A stretch of DNA of 64,000 nucleotides, from NCBI GenBank assembly GCA_040830765.1, contig JBFOMH010000028.1, forward strand, positions 1 to 64,000, in the 5' to 3' direction. Both the position numbers and the translations under genes were made by a program. The stretch is from Puniceicoccaceae bacterium (GTDB taxonomy: Bacteria > Verrucomicrobiota > Verrucomicrobiia > Opitutales > Oceanipulchritudinaceae). A model generated the notes under the pieces. It did no database searches. It was not told the origin of the DNA and saw nothing but the letters and a program-made list of their open reading frames with translations. This document shows, in pieces, positions 41,365-49,367 of the stretch; position 1 is the stretch's first letter, and each line of letters begins with the position of its first letter.

Positions 41365-42480
41365 ATGCGGATCGACTGGTATGTGTTCAGGGAGTGGCTG
41401 AAGGTCTTTATCATGACCTTGTTCGTGCTGTTCGGGCTGCTCATCATCAGCGATCTGCAGGACAACTTGCCGGACCTGCTCGGGTTCGGGGCCAGCAATG
41501 CAGAGATTTTGCGTTACTATGCCATCAAGCTGCCTTCCTTCGTGCCCATTGTTGTTCCCATGGGGTTCATGGTCTCGCTGCTTTTCAGTCTCGGGCAGTT
41601 TCACCGGAATCACGAGATAACGGCCATGCGGGCGGCCGGATTCAGCCTCTTCCGGATTACCCGCAGCCTTTGGGCATCTGGCCTCGTGCTCACTGTCATC
41701 CTCTTCCAAATGAACGCCCGGATCATTCCCTGGTCGGTCGAGGAGGCCCGGCAGATCTGGAACGATTATGCCTACAGCAAGGCACTGCAGGAGGAGGCCA
41801 ATGAGGAAGTGGGCCTGCTCTACAATCTGACCTTCTTCAACCGTCGGGACGGCCGTCTGTGGTTCCTGAACCGCTTCAACGAGTACAACTACCGCGGGTT
41901 TGGCATCACCATCTCCGAATTGAATCCGGAAAACGGGCAGGAGCTGCGGCGCATTGCCGCCAACCGGGGCTACTATGATGACTTGAACGGTGGCTGGACC
42001 TTCAATGAGGGACGGGAGACAACCTTTGATGAAAGCAGTGGCGATCCTGTTCGCAGTTTGCCTTTTGACCAGTTGCACATGGCCGGGTTCACGGAGGATC
42101 CCGACTTGATGAAGGCCCTCGAAAAGCGTCCCAAGGACCTCTCCCTGAGCGAGCTCAAGACGGTGGTTGATTACCTTCGTCCAGCGGAGGATCCCCGCCT
42201 GGCCACTTATGCCGTGACCTTCTATGATCGGCTCTTCAGTCCAGTCAGCTGCCTGATCATCCTCGGACTGGCGATTCCTTTTTCGGTTACAGGGGTGAGG
42301 ACCAACCCATTTGTCGGAGTCAGTAAGGCGATGGGCCTGCTATTCCTTTATTACATCCTTCTCAATGTGGCCCAGTTTGCCGGGACCAGCGGGTTCAACC
42401 CGCTGTTGGCGGCTTCGTTGCCAAATGTCGCGGCTTTTGCCCTCATTGGATGGTACTTTATTAAACTGCAACATCCATGA
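41365..42480 (+). CDS. LptF/LptG family LPS export permease
   Basis: IDWYVFRE, NHEITAMRAAGFS; 3 TM + periplasmic domain + 3 TM. Confidence 0.9.
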   Translation: MRIDWYVFREWLKVFIMTLFVLFGLLIISDLQDNLPDLLGFGASNAEILRYYAIKLPSFVPIVVPMGFMVSLLFSLGQFHRNHEITAMRAAGFSLFRITRSLWASGLVLTVILFQMNARIIPWSVEEARQIWNDYAYSKALQEEANEEVGLLYNLTFFNRRDGRLWFLNRFNEYNYRGFGITISELNPENGQELRRIAANRGYYDDLNGGWTFNEGRETTFDESSGDPVRSLPFDQLHMAGFTEDPDLMKALEKRPKDLSLSELKTVVDYLRPAEDPRLATYAVTFYDRLFSPVSCLIILGLAIPFSVTGVRTNPFVGVSKAMGLLFLYYILLNVAQFAGTSGFNPLLAASLPNVAAFALIGWYFIKLQHP

Positions 42481-43633: not shown

Positions 43634-44539
43634 TTACCAGAAGAAGGTCATTACCCGGGGGTCCAGGTGTTTCTTTGAGCGTGACGGATAGAGGGTTCGC
43701 CACACCGTGGCGTAATTTTCCCATGGTCCCCGGATTTCGTTGTCCACCAATGGTTCCGGGCAAGTGTCATCAGGTGAAGGAACATCCATTTTCAATCGCT
43801 CCCTGAAGACGGCATGGCCGTAAGGGAATGCATAGTGCAAAAGCCGTCTTTCCAGATGATTGCCCAGGGCAGGGAGATCCGTCTCGCTGAAGCGGGGATT
43901 TCGCTTATTGAAAAACTCCAGCGCCACGATGGCCCGCTCCAGTTCAATGGTCGCCTTCCAGAGCGAATCCCTAACCTTTACCGCCGCGGCAGTGCCATAG
44001 CCCGTCCATCCGCAAGGGCCCATCCTCCAGCAGAGGACTACCGCAGCTTCGGAGATCGGGTTGTTGATCCGGACAGCCGAAAATCCAGGTACCTTAGTTT
44101 CCAATGGCTGATGCTCCAGGCAGCGATTCCACCACTGGACGAGGCAGTACCGTTCCTCGGCCTCAAGCCGCGCCCGTTCGCGGGCTGATCCCTTGAAGAG
44201 TCCAGGGAAGGCCGCAATGCCGCTTGTTGTGTCATCATCCTGGAACCCATGGGATGCGTGTTGGCCCTGCTGGCAGATATAGTGGAAGGCCCACCGTTCC
44301 AGTGCTTCCGAGATAGCCTTGTGCCGCGCTACCATTGGGGAGGCGTCGGTCCCGGTCCCGTCAGCGTTGGCAAAGACTTGGTTCTCCCCCTGCCTGAGGT
44401 TCAAGTACCGGGATAAGTAAGCGCTGGCCTGCTGGAGCTGTCTTCCCTGGATGGTGACAGGACCGTGCTCAAGGTACTCAATGGGGCCGCCATGGCAATT
44501 GAGGACTTTGCTGTATCGCAGGGGCGCAAGGCTCAACAT
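43634..44539 (-). CDS. Compact stand-alone YcaO-family protein
   Basis: Three YcaO-type ATP/Mg motifs: GTG..(A)..KAISEALER, TSGIAA...ARLEAEER, GYGTAA...ATIELER. GGAG RBS upstream. Confidence 0.75.
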   Translation of the reverse strand: MLSLAPLRYSKVLNCHGGPIEYLEHGPVTIQGRQLQQASAYLSRYLNLRQGENQVFANADGTGTDASPMVARHKAISEALERWAFHYICQQGQHASHGFQDDDTTSGIAAFPGLFKGSARERARLEAEERYCLVQWWNRCLEHQPLETKVPGFSAVRINNPISEAAVVLCWRMGPCGWTGYGTAAAVKVRDSLWKATIELERAIVALEFFNKRNPRFSETDLPALGNHLERRLLHYAFPYGHAVFRERLKMDVPSPDDTCPEPLVDNEIRGPWENYATVWRTLYPSRSKKHLDPRVMTFFW

Positions 44540-44587
44540 GAGGTGCTCCAGCCAGTTGATGAAAACATTCCTGTAGCGGACTGTCCG

Positions 44588-44773
44588 CTACTTGCGCTTG
44601 TTTGAACCGCAGGGCAGGGTCCCGAGTGCGGGCGAATCGCTGGAAGGATCGGGAATCAACCTGGACTCGCTTTCCAGTTCATCAAATGCCTCCGCAGCCT
44701 TGACGAACCCACAGCTTAAAAGCAATGTGGCTGCCACATGAAGAATGATTCTGGGTATGCGTATTCTGCTCAT
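44588..44773 (-). CDS. 61-aa peptide with signal peptide; candidate YcaO substrate (RiPP precursor)
   Basis: Arg-rich n-region, hydrophobic h-region, VKA/AEA cleavage sites, C-terminal GTLPCGS; fills the gap 48 nt upstream of ycaO on the same strand. Confidence 0.6.
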   Translation of the reverse strand: MSRIRIPRIILHVAATLLLSCGFVKAAEAFDELESESRLIPDPSSDSPALGTLPCGSNKRK

Positions 44774-44861
44774 GTGTTCAGGAATAATTCCGGTGCTACC
44801 TAAATTCGACTAAAGGACCTCCTTGAATTCAAGTACTTTTTTTCCTTTACATGGCTGGACG

Positions 44862-47800
44862 ATGCGGGCCCACTTGCTTTCGGTCTTCCTGGTTGCTGCG
44901 GTAGCTTCTCTCCTGGAGGCCTCCATGGAGCGGTTTTTCCACTACGGTGAGCCGCTGGTGCAGGATCTGGGTATTGATGGATCCAAAGAAGGGGGGTATA
45001 TTTGGAATATTGTCTGGGACGACCTGGGGGTGGCCTATCTTGGCCGGGATACCCTCTGGCGCTGGGATGGGACCAACATGAGGCAACTGGGACCGGATCA
45101 CCTGGTCGAACTCAAGGGAATGTGTTTCGATGCCCAAGGCAGGCTGTGGTTGGGAAGTTTCAATGAGATTGGGGTCTTCGATCCCCGTACCTTGAGGTAT
45201 GATTCCCGACTGGACTGGATTCCGCGGGAAAAACAGGCTTTCGGACAAGTATGGGACCTTCACCACGACGGGGAGTTCCTTTGGGTTGCCACGGACCATC
45301 AACTCTTCCGGGTCGGGGAAGACAGCTTCAGCGACTGGTCATTTCCCGGGGACCATCGGGTCATCTTCCACTTTCTTGAGTCAGGCACTTATGCGCACCA
45401 GGTTGGTGTCGGCCTTTGGCGATTGCAGGACAGTGAGATGCACTTGCTTTGTGATGATTCCCAACTGGCCGAACGCAGCGTCCTCTATCTTGAGGATCAG
45501 CCTGATGGAACGTTGATGGCCGTCTCCGGGAGTGGGGTGTTCTATTACCATGAGAATTATATACCATCACTAATTAAGAATCAGTTTCCGTCACATATTT
45601 CACTAAGTGGGGTATGTGAAATATCTAGAGATCATTGGCTTTTAGGTACCCTAAGTGATGGCATCTTCGAGTTAACCAAAGAGGGTCAGGAATTCTCGCT
45701 TAGGAAAAGCAAGTCTCAGAGAGAACAGATAAGTATAATCAAATTACTGACCGATCCCCACGGAGAACTATGGCTTGTTGATTTAGATTCTGTTCAGATC
45801 GTTGATTTTTCATTCCTAATAACTCTGCTTAAAGGACCGGAAGATTTCCCCTCAGGGACAATTCGAGACATCAGTTTAATAAAAAGTTCTTTAGTACTTG
45901 GAATGGATACTGGAGTCTTTGAATTTAAGTCTAAAGATCTCAAAAACAATTGGATTCAGCACACCGAAAATGAATCCAAAAAGACTGTCGCTTTTGATGG
46001 CGCGATATATTTTGATGACTACGATCGGTTGATGGTTCTCAAGGACGGGAACCCGGAAGTATTGGCGGAGTTTGACCGGGAGATCCGCACGTTCACCCTG
46101 ACCTCGCCGGACCGATTGGTTGTGGCCTTCAACGATCGGTTGGAGGCCTATCGCATCATCCCCGGTAGGGAATTGGAGCTGCTTGGGGAATACAGTACAT
46201 TGAACGGGCTCGTTAAGCTGGAAGCCGATGCTACTGGACGGGTCTGGGGGTGGTCTCACCGCACGCCATTGCTGGAGGTCGTTGCTGATGGAATGGAGTT
46301 GAAAGTACATCGGTACGACACCGTTTCGGGAAGGGACCTGTTCAGCGAGGAGCATCAATTTGCGATAACTTCCGTGGGTCCGGTTCTGGTCTTTCATGAC
46401 ACATTGGCGCGTTACGCTGCAGGAAAGGGAATCTGGGAAGTGACGCCCTTTGACCCTGGACTGGGGCGATTGCAGGCCGTGGATTTCCGGATGGAGGCGA
46501 ACAACCTGTCGGGCTGGCTGATCGTGCGGGATCCGATGACGGACAACAGCCTTCTTCTGGAAGTGAACTGGCCGGCAGACGGCGTAGTGGACTGGAGCAT
46601 CCTGCCCTGGCCTGCGATGGATGAGATTGGTCCGGTCATGGATTTTGAATATGTGGATGGTCCGGAACCATACTTTGTCTTTGGCGGCCTGCGGGGAATC
46701 CTCATTGCACCGGTCGCGGTGTCGGAGCGCATTCCTGCACCAGGTAAGCCGGTTATTTGGGAGGGGTTGGCCGGCATACAACCCGCTGGTGACCGGGAAA
46801 CGGAATTTGGTGCGGGCAATCTGCATTATTCCTTCAGTACCCCACGGGCCAGCTGGCACTATCCTGTGTGGTACCAGACGCGGATTAAGGGAATGGACCC
46901 TGACTGGACTCCCCCAAGTCCATTTGCCTTCAGGGATACCGGGCAACTGCTGGACGGCACGTTCGACTTTCAGGTACGGGCGGTAGATCCCTTTGGCCGG
47001 GTGGGCCCAATTGCCTCGGTCCGGTTGAAGGTTAATCCTCCCTGGAGCCGTACCGGATGGGCTTACCTCATTTACTTTGGCTGTATCTTGTTGCTGGTCG
47101 CATTTGGTGTTCGCTTCGCTATCCATCTGGAGCGCAACAAACAGCGCAAACTGGAGCGCCTCGTTGATGAAAGGACCCACGAATTGCGCCAGGCAAATGC
47201 CTTCAAGGACCTCTTGATTGCCAACTTGAGCCACGAAATCCGCAACCCGTTGAACGGAGTGATTGGCCTTATCCGTCAGTTGAAGGAGGATGCCCTGCCT
47301 CCTTTGAGCCATTTGAAGGCCCTTCGGCAGGCAGCGGACTACCTTCGCAACACAGTCGAGGGCGTACTGGACTTTTCCAAGATTCAATCGGGTCAGGTTG
47401 AGCTCAAGTTCAAGCCGGTCAATTTAAGACCTGTCCTCATGGGGCCCGTTGGTATCTACAGGTCCCAGGCTAAAGCAAAGGGGCTTGACCTTAAAGTCGA
47501 CTTTGAAGTCGCGGATGAGTTGGTTGTCGTTACGGACGAACAGAAGATACAGCAAATCATGGGTAATCTTGTTTCCAATGCGATCAAGTTCACCGAGGCG
47601 GGTACCGTATCGGTCGAGGTCCGGTTGGAAGTGGAGGAGCTGGAGAGGGGCAACTTGACTATATGCGTCATGGATACAGGTCGTGGCATAGCCCCTGAAG
47701 ACCATGACAAGATTTTCCAGGAATTCTACCAGAGCAAGGGACCCGCTCTAAAGACTCCCGGCACAGGTCTTGGTCTGGCACTAGTTCGGCAGTATGCGGA

Positions 47801-48689
47801 GCTCTTGCAGGGAACTGTCAGCCTGGAGTCCACATTAGGGGAAGGTTCCTCCTTTACGGTGTCGCTTCCGGTTTCCGTGGCCGCATTCGGATCTGACAAC
47901 GGTGAAGCAGACCTCCCCGGGGCAGCTTTGAACCTCTCTGTCCTGGTCATTGAGGATACCGATTACAACCGACTCTTTATGGAGGACTTGCTTGTCGAGC
48001 GCGGGTGCCGGGTTGACCTTGCCGAAGATGGAAATACCGGATTACAGATGGCGCTAAAAGGTCAGTATGACCTCATCTTCCTTGATTGGGAATTGCCAGG
48101 AATGAATGGTGTGGAGATTACCCGGGAGCTGCGGGCGAATCAGCAATTCGATCAATCCACACTGCTGGTGGGACTGACAGCCTTTGCCACGGAGGACAGG
48201 CGCCGGGCTGGACTGGAGGCGGGTATGAGTGCTTTCCTGGTCAAGCCGCTGGAACTTCGCGATCTTTACAGGGTCCTCGAGACAAGATACCCGGGTTTGA
48301 AGGATGTTATAAAGGGAGCTCTGGAATCCGAAGATACGCAGACAGGGGCAGGAAACAGCGGTGAGTCCTTGATCGCAGGCAGGGGACTCCTGGCTGAGAT
48401 GTCGGCTCACAAGGATTGGGACGACTTGAAGAACCGGTGGCTGGGAATTTTCAATGAGCACGTCCTCGAGGTTGCCCAGGCCATAGAAGGTGGCGACAGC
48501 GAGACCATTCGCCGCTACACCCACAAGCTGCTCGGGCATTTGCGCATGCTCCAAGCGGAACCCATCGCAGAACCCATCCAGCAGATGCTGGTTGCGGCTC
48601 ATGGAGGAGATATGGAGCGTATCTGCCGGCACTGGGCCACGTTCAACGGTCGGCTGGAGGCATTCCGTGAGGCTTACAGGAAATTGTGA
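44862..48689 (+). CDS. Hybrid sensor histidine kinase: periplasmic beta-propellers, Y_Y_Y, TM, HisKA, HATPase, REC, HPt
   Basis: GRLWLG blades, YQTRIKGMDPDW..FQVRA, PPWSRTGWAY + TM, SHEIRNPLNG, NLVSNAIKFT, DTGRGI, GTGLGL, FLDWELPGMNG and HKLLG. Confidence 0.93.
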   Translation: MRAHLLSVFLVAAVASLLEASMERFFHYGEPLVQDLGIDGSKEGGYIWNIVWDDLGVAYLGRDTLWRWDGTNMRQLGPDHLVELKGMCFDAQGRLWLGSFNEIGVFDPRTLRYDSRLDWIPREKQAFGQVWDLHHDGEFLWVATDHQLFRVGEDSFSDWSFPGDHRVIFHFLESGTYAHQVGVGLWRLQDSEMHLLCDDSQLAERSVLYLEDQPDGTLMAVSGSGVFYYHENYIPSLIKNQFPSHISLSGVCEISRDHWLLGTLSDGIFELTKEGQEFSLRKSKSQREQISIIKLLTDPHGELWLVDLDSVQIVDFSFLITLLKGPEDFPSGTIRDISLIKSSLVLGMDTGVFEFKSKDLKNNWIQHTENESKKTVAFDGAIYFDDYDRLMVLKDGNPEVLAEFDREIRTFTLTSPDRLVVAFNDRLEAYRIIPGRELELLGEYSTLNGLVKLEADATGRVWGWSHRTPLLEVVADGMELKVHRYDTVSGRDLFSEEHQFAITSVGPVLVFHDTLARYAAGKGIWEVTPFDPGLGRLQAVDFRMEANNLSGWLIVRDPMTDNSLLLEVNWPADGVVDWSILPWPAMDEIGPVMDFEYVDGPEPYFVFGGLRGILIAPVAVSERIPAPGKPVIWEGLAGIQPAGDRETEFGAGNLHYSFSTPRASWHYPVWYQTRIKGMDPDWTPPSPFAFRDTGQLLDGTFDFQVRAVDPFGRVGPIASVRLKVNPPWSRTGWAYLIYFGCILLLVAFGVRFAIHLERNKQRKLERLVDERTHELRQANAFKDLLIANLSHEIRNPLNGVIGLIRQLKEDALPPLSHLKALRQAADYLRNTVEGVLDFSKIQSGQVELKFKPVNLRPVLMGPVGIYRSQAKAKGLDLKVDFEVADELVVVTDEQKIQQIMGNLVSNAIKFTEAGTVSVEVRLEVEELERGNLTICVMDTGRGIAPEDHDKIFQEFYQSKGPALKTPGTGLGLALVRQYAELLQGTVSLESTLGEGSSFTVSLPVSVAAFGSDNGEADLPGAALNLSVLVIEDTDYNRLFMEDLLVERGCRVDLAEDGNTGLQMALKGQYDLIFLDWELPGMNGVEITRELRANQQFDQSTLLVGLTAFATEDRRRAGLEAGMSAFLVKPLELRDLYRVLETRYPGLKDVIKGALESEDTQTGAGNSGESLIAGRGLLAEMSAHKDWDDLKNRWLGIFNEHVLEVAQAIEGGDSETIRRYTHKLLGHLRMLQAEPIAEPIQQMLVAAHGGDMERICRHWATFNGRLEAFREAYRKL

Positions 48690-48692
48690 TCC

Positions 48693-49367
48693 TCAATCGT
48701 GTACATGGTAGGTGTCCTGCAGCCCCATGCTAGGAAAGGCGGGCTTCCAGAATCCACATTCGTTGGCGTAGCGAATAAGTTCTGGCGTACTGTGGACGTC
48801 CAGTTTGCGGAAAAGATTCCGGCGATGGGTTTGAACGGAGCTTTCACTGAGTCCGAGGCCTTCGCCGATTTCGCGGTCAGATAATCCGGATCCAATGAGG
48901 GTGAGAACCTCCTGTTCCCGCTTGGTAAGGATCTTCTGGAAAGCCTTCGGGTCCGTGCGCAATTGATTCAGGACGGCCTGGATACTGGGGGAATAGTATC
49001 GCTGGCGCGCAAGGACTCCCTCGATCGCCTGCCGTAGCACGTCAACGGAGGCCTCCTTCTTGTCGATGAACGCCGGAAGGTGCTGCTTGTTTACCTGGTA
49101 AACGGTCTTGGGATCGGTTTCCGCCGAAAGGGCGATGATACGTAGCTTTGGCATTACGGCCAGCAACCGCCTTGCAACATGGATACCGGACAGCTTTGGA
49201 ATCAGGATGTCGAGGATAACCAAATCTGGCTTCTCTCTCAAGATGAGCTCAAGGGCGGCTTCCCCATCCGTCGCGATACCGGCGATCTCAAATCCCATCT
49301 TGTCTCGCAACTGGTCAATCAGGAACTCCTGGAAAAGTATCTGGTCTTCAACGACAACCACCCTCAT
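48693..49367 (-). CDS. NarL/LuxR-family response regulator
   Basis: VVVED, ILDILIP, LTKREQEVL...EIGEGLGLSESSVQTHRRNL. Confidence 0.93.
   Translation of the reverse strand: MRVVVVEDQILFQEFLIDQLRDKMGFEIAGIATDGEAALELILREKPDLVILDILIPKLSGIHVARRLLAVMPKLRIIALSAETDPKTVYQVNKQHLPAFIDKKEASVDVLRQAIEGVLARQRYYSPSIQAVLNQLRTDPKAFQKILTKREQEVLTLIGSGLSDREIGEGLGLSESSVQTHRRNLFRKLDVHSTPELIRYANECGFWKPAFPSMGLQDTYHVHD

Follow-up and report, generated by a model that had tools for sequence, protein, structure and literature searches.

The small ORF upstream of ycaO is a conserved gene

A preliminary description of the window (the whole 64,000-nucleotide stretch of Puniceicoccaceae DNA analysed here) singled out a 61-aa ORF and read it as the precursor of a Sec-exported RiPP modified by a YcaO enzyme. 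We asked whether this ORF is a gene and, if so, what its product is likely to do. The features that bear on these questions are the following.

44588..44773, minus strand: precursor peptide gene, 61 aa (from the ORF, profile matches, selection and predicted proteins)
44681..44773, minus strand: precursor residues 1-31, with a basic n-region, a hydrophobic helix and conserved G22, A27 and D31; putative signal peptide, YcaO leader or both, the favoured SPase I site being after Ala26
44600..44623, minus strand: precursor residues 51-58, candidate core around Pro54-Cys55 (Cys codon 44609-44611)
43634..44539, minus strand: minimal stand-alone YcaO-fold enzyme, 301 aa, with an aromatic C-terminus
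44862..48689, plus strand: hybrid histidine kinase with a signal-like N-terminus, periplasmic double beta-propeller plus Ig-like domain, one predicted TM helix, HisKA, HATPase, REC and a weak Hpt (ATG at 44862 likely; open from TTG at 44823)
48693..49367, minus strand: NarL/LuxR-type response regulator (REC + GerE), 224 aa, convergent with the kinase
44820..44835, no strand: 16-bp palindromic box, starting 62 nt upstream of the precursor ATG (13.2 bits)
44797..44812, no strand: second, weaker copy of the box, 23 bp closer to the ATG (9.7 bits)

The precursor ORF is separated from the 301-aa ycaO gene by 48 nt, and the module is flanked by genes for RlmI and a FAD oxidase-like protein. The plus-strand frame over 44588-44773 is interrupted by stops. 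All of the segments named in the preliminary description were found in the 61-aa ORF, the tail being NKRK after PCGS.

The proposed tie between the precursor and the neighbouring YcaO had been staked on equivalent ORFs upstream of homologous ycaO genes, and such equivalents were found nearly everywhere. Once a duplicate and the shorter versions of extended loci had been removed, our set held 138 distinct loci, of which 132 carry at least 350 nt of upstream DNA. By a leader-only profile, 122 of these 132 loci have a precursor homologue immediately before the short ycaO, with a single match elsewhere in 21,510 frames; since the profile was built from the same loci, this count is partly circular. 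Eight of the ten misses show a divergent signal-like ORF by eye, and two (L110 and L169) are without any. Among metagenome contigs outside the profile building, a precursor was present in 50 of 53, some of which may duplicate genome DNA. When 39,457 short ORFs of the genome carrying the window were searched, the leader profile matched two, both of them precursors, arguing that the N-terminus is family-specific and not a generic signal. The precursor is under purifying selection (dN/dS of 0.11 against L001, and 0 to 0.42 across 18 pairs), with conserved positions at G22 (98%), A27 (97%), D31 (79%), P54 (53%) and C55 (85%). The upstream homologues, the purifying selection and the genome specificity of the leader profile rule out a chance ORF, and we conclude that the 61-aa ORF is a real gene encoding the peptide of a conserved four-gene unit (precursor, YcaO, kinase and regulator). 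The expectation that it would be missed by most gene callers was not borne out: the exact protein and 39 other profile matches occur among predicted proteins.

The kinase, the regulator and the operator box are absent from the preliminary description; once they are included, the locus reads as a signalling module and no longer as an isolated RiPP. We think it fairly probable that the ORF encodes the pro-peptide of an autoinducing-peptide circuit that resembles agr but is assembled from unrelated components, the product probably containing a Cys thiazoline.

Family scans of the precursor gave nothing meaningful (the best Atlas score was 0.85), the AgrD family was not among the NCBIfam matches of 110 precursors, and no relatives were detected in viral contigs, plasmids or phage records. 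Contigs from three of four RNA runs cover most or all of the ORF (X1, 44219-44787, bridging the ORF and ycaO; X2, to 44731; X3, to 44770); such contigs cannot reveal transcription, strand or level and carry no weight as evidence. A sigma-70 scan returned 0 promoters. At 11 loci (L004-L008, L010, L012, L014, L015, L020 and L023) two tandem peptides with a shared leader were observed, the second being Cys-free and more conserved in sequence; it is possibly an inhibitor, a decoy or a trans-acting leader. A 41-aa leader-only ORF with no core was seen just downstream of ycaO in two cases (L016:7009-7134 and L264:1885-2088).

The adjacent gene encodes a minimal YcaO enzyme

The 301-aa enzyme matched Pfam YcaO with an E value of 0.11, below the cut-off, and PF02624 detected neither YcaO copy in the genome; 31 of 34 homologues match PF02624 at E up to 0.1. 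In PDB sequence searches, query A1 missed YcaO and query A5 reached it at E 0.11 only. The predicted structure (pLDDT 91) gave YcaO proteins as its top five matches (Z 17.3 to 11.8), the next, unrelated match having a Z of 6.1. The model was superimposed on McbD with a Z of 17.3 (rmsd 4.2, 262 residues aligned), on the M. kandleri YcaO with a Z of 15.9 and on the heterocyclase 4v1t with a Z of 15.3, and the alignment reaches the C-terminus, residue 301 being paired with McbD 395 and 4v1t 775. The accessible part of PMC6395948 places the C-terminus of McbD in the active site and assigns ATP/Mg roles to its residues. McbD T148, E167, E170, R171 and Q264 pair with T105, E126, E129, R130 and R202 in a weak profile alignment (E 0.11). 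E78, E81, E126, E129 and E199 are kept in 110 of 110 YcaO sequences and R202 in 108 of 110; the tail is aromatic, with FFW in 75 of 110, and not Pro-X-Pro. The modelled fold and the retained ATP/Mg residues identify the 301-aa protein as a member of the YcaO superfamily.

The first search returned 560 YcaO homologues, assigned to Opitutales wherever named, and the short-YcaO family comprises 316 clusters at 50% identity (E up to 1e-30). A family that falls below the Pfam cut-off is missed by rule-based mining. Neither the genes that recur next to 111 loci nor 20 neighbouring proteins that were scanned include an E1-like/RRE partner or a dehydrogenase, and the module neighbours included no recurrent transporter, immunity gene or second tailoring enzyme.

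A predicted complex of YcaO and the precursor scored 0.35 compared with 0.00 for the best control, with runs agreeing in at least 63% of contacts and a partner pLDDT of at least 63. The mark for this score was reached by 116 of 157 solved pairs and 2 of 215 mismatched pairs, and scores of 0.60 or less accounted for 18 of the 157 solved pairs and both mismatches. Passes as low as this would be wrong more often than right unless the interaction is likely beforehand, and the prediction lends weak support to binding of the precursor by YcaO.

The N-terminus as export signal, YcaO leader or both

According to our own heuristics, a net positive n-region is present in 128 of 135 precursors, and a hydrophobic h-region or helix in 127 of 135. 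Of 126 precursors, 97 offer a usable SPase I site, in most cases ahead of A27. SPase I sites had been placed in the KAAEA segment; the better candidate site lies before the conserved Ala27 (80 of 126) as opposed to after it (26 of 126), and 29 of 126 fit neither. Because these 29 precursors lack a fitting site, the N-terminal segment may also, or instead, be the YcaO leader. The LLSC sequence offered as an alternative lipobox can be discarded, since no lipobox was detected in 135 precursors, and a lipoprotein is rejected on the same count; Tat export was rejected as well (0 of 135). The acidic segment is present in the 61-aa peptide but is not conserved after Asp31 in the family. A Sec signal on a RiPP precursor had been called unusual: the N-terminus is indeed signal-like, but bufferins provide a precedent.

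One could envisage that the helix is not cleaved at all and that the peptide would stay in the inner membrane as a feedback modulator of the kinase, as E. coli MgrB acts on PhoQ. The hydrophobic helix, the 29 precursors with no clear SPase I site and the regulator-type box upstream are consistent with such a role, and the additional Cys-free peptide that shares the leader at 11 loci could be a modulator of this kind. We consider this reading very improbable, however, given the 97 precursors with a usable SPase I site, the tandem cores in ten precursors, which suggest that short units are released, and the constant YcaO partner, which such modulators would not need.

The core peptide and its candidate chemistry

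The preliminary description had offered the Cys, Thr or Ser near the C-terminus as the YcaO target. Only the Cys stands as a conserved candidate; Thr52 (13%) and Ser57 (18% of the 39 rows with a residue there) were rejected as conserved targets. A core Cys was found in 119 of 135 precursors at a median of 31 residues from the leader Gly and was lacking in 16. Cys55 is usually preceded by Pro and is the sole conserved core residue in the Opitutales branch. Two close Cys residues are present in 46 of 135 precursors, and in ten precursors the core is repeated two to four times; multi-core RiPP and pheromone precursors repeat their cores likewise. A Cys-free main precursor lies beside a full-length YcaO at 10 of 131 loci, two of these being second peptides on short contigs and one frameshift-like. 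At L019, L117, L119, L128, L134, L135 and L016 the precursors have acidic cores of the Pro/Asp-Gly-Asp or Pro-Gly-Glu type, most of them lacking Cys and many present in several copies. These precursors lie beside a full-length YcaO and are scattered over several separate branches, and some of them have an altered leader.

Given the Cys-free precursors and the Asn-Gly cores of the sister clade described below, thiazoline cannot be the family-wide chemistry. In Opitutales the modification is probably a Cys thiazoline. A thioamide route involving TfuA was rejected, as TfuA (PF07812) was not detected in the one genome searched, that of the window (0 of 1; 97% complete), the control matching in 1 of 14; TfuA-free thioamidation is possible. 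No releasing protease was found, and the module contains none.

The peptide may instead serve signalling through a different YcaO reaction, namely ATP-dependent backbone cleavage as in MusD or amidine closure as in streptamidine and bottromycin, the N-terminus being mainly a leader. This alternative overlaps with the thiazoline circuit, from which it differs only in the enzymatic step, and we regard it as less likely, though a real possibility. The Cys-free Pro/Asp-Gly-Asp and Asn-Gly cores beside full-length YcaO, the aromatic C-terminus in place of Pro-X-Pro and the lack of a protease in the module would all be accommodated, and precedents exist for MusD (accessible text of PMC10885120) and for amidine formation by a stand-alone YcaO (accessible text of the streptamidine preprint). 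On the other hand, no core residue other than Cys is conserved in the Opitutales branch, the model aligns through its C-terminus with the azoline-forming McbD and 4v1t, and the same portion of the streptamidine preprint describes a bottromycin thiazoline made by a partner-free YcaO.

A propeller-type sensor kinase and a NarL-type regulator accompany the precursor

The kinase facing the precursor is 1,275-1,288 aa long, depending on the start. Of 87 loci, 82 have an intact kinase in divergent orientation, and the regulator is present in 71 of 79; at the five loci missing the kinase, kinase sequence is present by tblastn, and three look frameshifted. Metagenome loci carry the sensor in 25 of 27 cases. 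The regulator domains are REC and GerE, not LytTR. We count the tight linkage of precursor, kinase and regulator in favour of the signalling circuit. Counted against it are the glycan-sensor fold of the kinase, which is modelled as a double propeller like that of BT4663 (TM up to 0.76), and a distribution of the sensor family wider than that of the module (41 of 401 genomes, compared with 31 of 401 for YcaO). Neither precursor nor YcaO was found at any of 20 orphan-kinase loci. The sensor tree is poorly resolved, with module and orphan sensors mixed (6 changes) and 6 of the 20 orphans left out because they lack the cut motif; it does not show the module kinases as one clade.

These observations raise the possibility that the peptide is a YcaO-modified effector, either a periplasmic metal binder like the bufferins or an antimicrobial, and that the kinase responds to something else, such as a glycan or stress, and does no more than induce the peptide. 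The match of the sensor fold to the glycan-sensing BT4663 and BT4673, the commonness of orphan kinases of the same family and the two close Cys residues in 46 of 135 precursors would suit an effector, and bufferins are Sec-exported metal-binding RiPPs, as stated in the accessible part of 10.1101/2024.03.18.585515. We nevertheless judge an effector improbable, since the core and sensor are hypervariable, neither a transporter nor an immunity gene recurs among the neighbours, a single genome holds two paralogous modules whose cores differ, and the sister clade joins the same leader type to a solute-binding protein of an oligopeptide-binding family and a kinase.

Several further features of the kinases were noted. 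The recurring downstream genes scanned mostly encode further kinases, and in Opitutaceae ycaO often has another kinase gene, or a gene for a lone HATPase protein, downstream of it in the same orientation (L010, L013, L021, L030, L038, L043 and others), possibly as a second relay tier. The kinase gene is in pieces at L034, L035, L063, L051 and L070, where either assembly errors or signal-blind variants may be responsible; the L070 precursor is also frameshift-like. Positions 45400-46200 of the window, in the sensor part of the kinase, have a G+C content of 38-45% compared with about 55% around them, and this stretch could be a swapped-in allele of the ligand-binding region. A third kinase of the same family in the genome (G000:C13:110036-114840) has its own regulator, is without precursor or YcaO and is divergent from a gene for a 1,105-aa secreted protein.

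A palindromic box precedes the precursor gene

A 16-bp palindrome of consensus type TACC-N8-GGTA was learned from 95 non-redundant upstream regions out of 120, with a log-likelihood of 324 compared with about 30 for shuffles. The box is present in 71 of the 95 regions as opposed to 3.8% of shuffles, shows a 22-bp phase at about -65, -87 and -110, and resembles NarL 7-2-7 sites. The two boxes in the window, 23 bp apart, are the only such 22/23-bp pair in the genome. For 18 of 20 peptide-free kinases no box was detected near the start, and the other two matches lie more than 500 nt away.

A genome scan with the box gave 173 matches at 11 bits or more; because 149 of these are within coding DNA, single matches are weak. 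The best two intergenic single boxes (G000:C5:239270, L172, and G000:C21:53310, L173) lie 62 and 65 nt upstream of genes for an unlinked NarL regulator and a PEP-CTERM-type protein, respectively, which are candidate regulon members. For the unlinked C5 regulator (40% identity), the box is found 62-65 nt upstream in 8 of 12 genomes of the genus (at least 9.7 bits). This regulator gene could be a target or encode a second protein that binds the box, the latter in this genus, where alone the regulator was found at the cut-off used, whereas the box is order-wide.

Core and sensor diverge faster than the rest of the module

The window's family is represented by 36 other genomes, and 28 of them carry the YcaO. 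In a sample of 401 genomes spanning the phylum, it was detected in 31, which fall into four families of that order; the named loci are in Opitutales. In one Opitutales family, 20 of the 35 genomes sampled have the module. In 26 disjoint pairs, mean identity was 48% for the sensor, 41% for the core, 66% for the leader, 75% for the kinase, 75% for the regulator and 77% for YcaO. The comparison is among module genes, and 62 of 64 complete loci had the anchor Cys. The core and sensor are thus hypervariable, the fastest-diverging of the module parts. Relative to G017, the flanking genes are 94% and 90% identical, YcaO 71% and the sensor 61%. Core and sensor covaried when YcaO alone was controlled for (r 0.46, p 0.02), but not significantly with full controls for YcaO, kinase and regulator (r 0.29, p 0.18).

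A second complete module is present in the genome (G000:C3:37136-42631, L164). It has a 55-aa precursor (41426-41593) with an IYC-type core, a YcaO 31% identical to that of the window, and a kinase with a co-directional regulator; its own conserved upstream palindrome replaces the 16-bp box. Modules of the C3 type form one clade of 11 loci.

A sister clade combines the leader and YcaO with a different putative receptor

One Atlas neighbour is mostly from Bdellovibrionota. A sister clade of short YcaO proteins, ending in Phe, was recovered with a support of 97, and 11 metagenome loci belong to it. In the six loci with enough upstream DNA, the gene order is precursor, family-5 solute-binding protein and YcaO; the Pfam match to this family was obtained for seven of nine upstream proteins scanned, the other two being contig-cut fragments. 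The Opitutales leader profile picks up four of the sister precursors (E 1e-6 to 0.04), and the other two were recognised by eye. Asn-Gly occurs in every one of the six (L195, L200, L201, L204, L223 and L260) and Pro-Cys in none, so that across the whole family the chemistry need not always involve Cys. Four of the six loci have a kinase next to them, and L200 has a sigma-54 regulator; L223 carries a truncated ycaO 5' piece upstream. Peptide and enzyme thus remain paired while the receptor changes, and no other observation speaks as strongly for the product being a signal.

It is plausible, if not quite probable, that these loci together represent a widespread, undescribed family of peptide autoinducers in Gram-negative bacteria, in which a minimal partner-free YcaO would read a joint Sec signal and leader, forming a Cys thiazoline in Opitutales and possibly carrying out a new Asn-Gly reaction in the sister clade. 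The peptide and its enzyme would have been joined to two unrelated receptors, a double-propeller kinase in one case and a solute-binding protein with a kinase in the other.

A proposed circuit

In the agr-like circuit that we favour, the phosphorylated NarL-type regulator would bind the tandem 16-bp boxes and turn on the precursor gene and ycaO. The cytoplasmic YcaO, whose predicted fold and retained residues are described above, would bind the N-terminal helix through G22, A27 and D31 and activate the Pro54-Cys55 amide at the expense of ATP, the most likely outcome being a thiazoline ring; the module has no dehydrogenase. The product would then be exported by Sec through its signal-like N-terminus and cut by SPase I after Ala26, and a further protease would trim the spacer to free a short core, repeated cores yielding several copies. 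The mature peptide would bind the periplasmic double propeller of the kinase, which would phosphorylate the regulator; this would complete a positive loop, and other genes with a box would respond as well. With cores and sensors varying, strains would have dialects of their own, and the paralogous C3 module would provide a second channel. Explanations other than this circuit and the alternatives set out above are, in our estimate, very unlikely.

Relation to known systems

In agr, AgrD, AgrB, AgrC and AgrA constitute a Cys-containing pro-peptide, a maturase, a kinase and a regulator of the LytTR type. The present module is similar in having a pro-peptide with a Cys and an amphipathic N-terminus, one maturase, a kinase and a regulator in a conserved locus, a box upstream of the peptide gene (here a predicted operator) and variable peptide and sensor. 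It differs in sharing no families with staphylococcal agr: YcaO takes the place of AgrB, the kinase is a double-propeller hybrid, NarL/GerE replaces LytTR and the host is Gram-negative. The module is agr-like by architecture and is not a member of the agr family, the thiolactone chemistry of which is outlined in the accessible part of PMC13056109.

With the azol(in)e-forming YcaO systems (microcin B17 McbD, cyanobactin heterocyclases and bottromycin), the module shares the modelled fold, the ATP/Mg residues, the C-terminal alignment and an adjacent short Cys precursor. Unlike them, its enzyme has about 300 aa (McbD has 396), an aromatic tail and a score below the Pfam cut-off, there is no adjacent E1/RRE or dehydrogenase, one Cys is the candidate target, and a sensor kinase accompanies the locus. 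The module thus counts as a YcaO system, but one without the usual LAP/TOMM cluster features. The survey in the streptamidine preprint, in the part accessible, is actinobacterial and dropped proteins of <350 aa.

Bufferins and other RiPPs with Sec or lipoprotein signals, as far as the accessible portions of 10.1101/2024.03.18.585515 and PMC13056109 describe them, likewise carry a signal peptide on the precursor and are modified in the cytoplasm and exported by the general machinery. They depend on MNIO enzymes, and the bufferins among them have folded cores with 4-12 Cys, are under SigF control and have a dispensable signal, in contrast to the YcaO, short core and family-conserved N-terminus seen here; where bufferins have an MNIO with a partner and a folded multi-Cys core, the neighbour here is YcaO and one Cys is conserved. 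The Bacteroides hybrid sensors BT4663 and BT4673 share the periplasmic double beta-propeller and Y_Y_Y fold with our kinase, which has no fused AraC output, a separate NarL regulator, no nearby glycan-use genes and a proposed peptide ligand.

We found no description of the four-gene module in the literature searched, and supplementary RiPP-mining tables could list such loci; the accessible parts of PMC13063428, PMC5589413 and a sponge preprint contain nothing on it, and that of PMC4603692 does not mention Verrucomicrobia. No signalling system for Opitutales was found in the literature searched either. Two-component peptide quorum sensing is usually treated as Gram-positive (accessible part of PMC6459948), and the module probably lets one group of Gram-negative environmental bacteria signal via a chemically modified peptide. 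If so, YcaO chemistry would extend to cell-cell signalling and an HTCS-type propeller sensor would have a peptide ligand. The module offers a four-gene, testable hypothesis that includes a predicted operator and candidate targets, and it defines the large short-YcaO family described above; a 300-residue partner-free enzyme with tolerant cores would aid peptide modification as a tool.

Elsewhere in the genome, two giant ORFs were noted, of 18,659 aa (G000:C19:151237-207216) and 6,954 aa (G000:C6:47824-68688).
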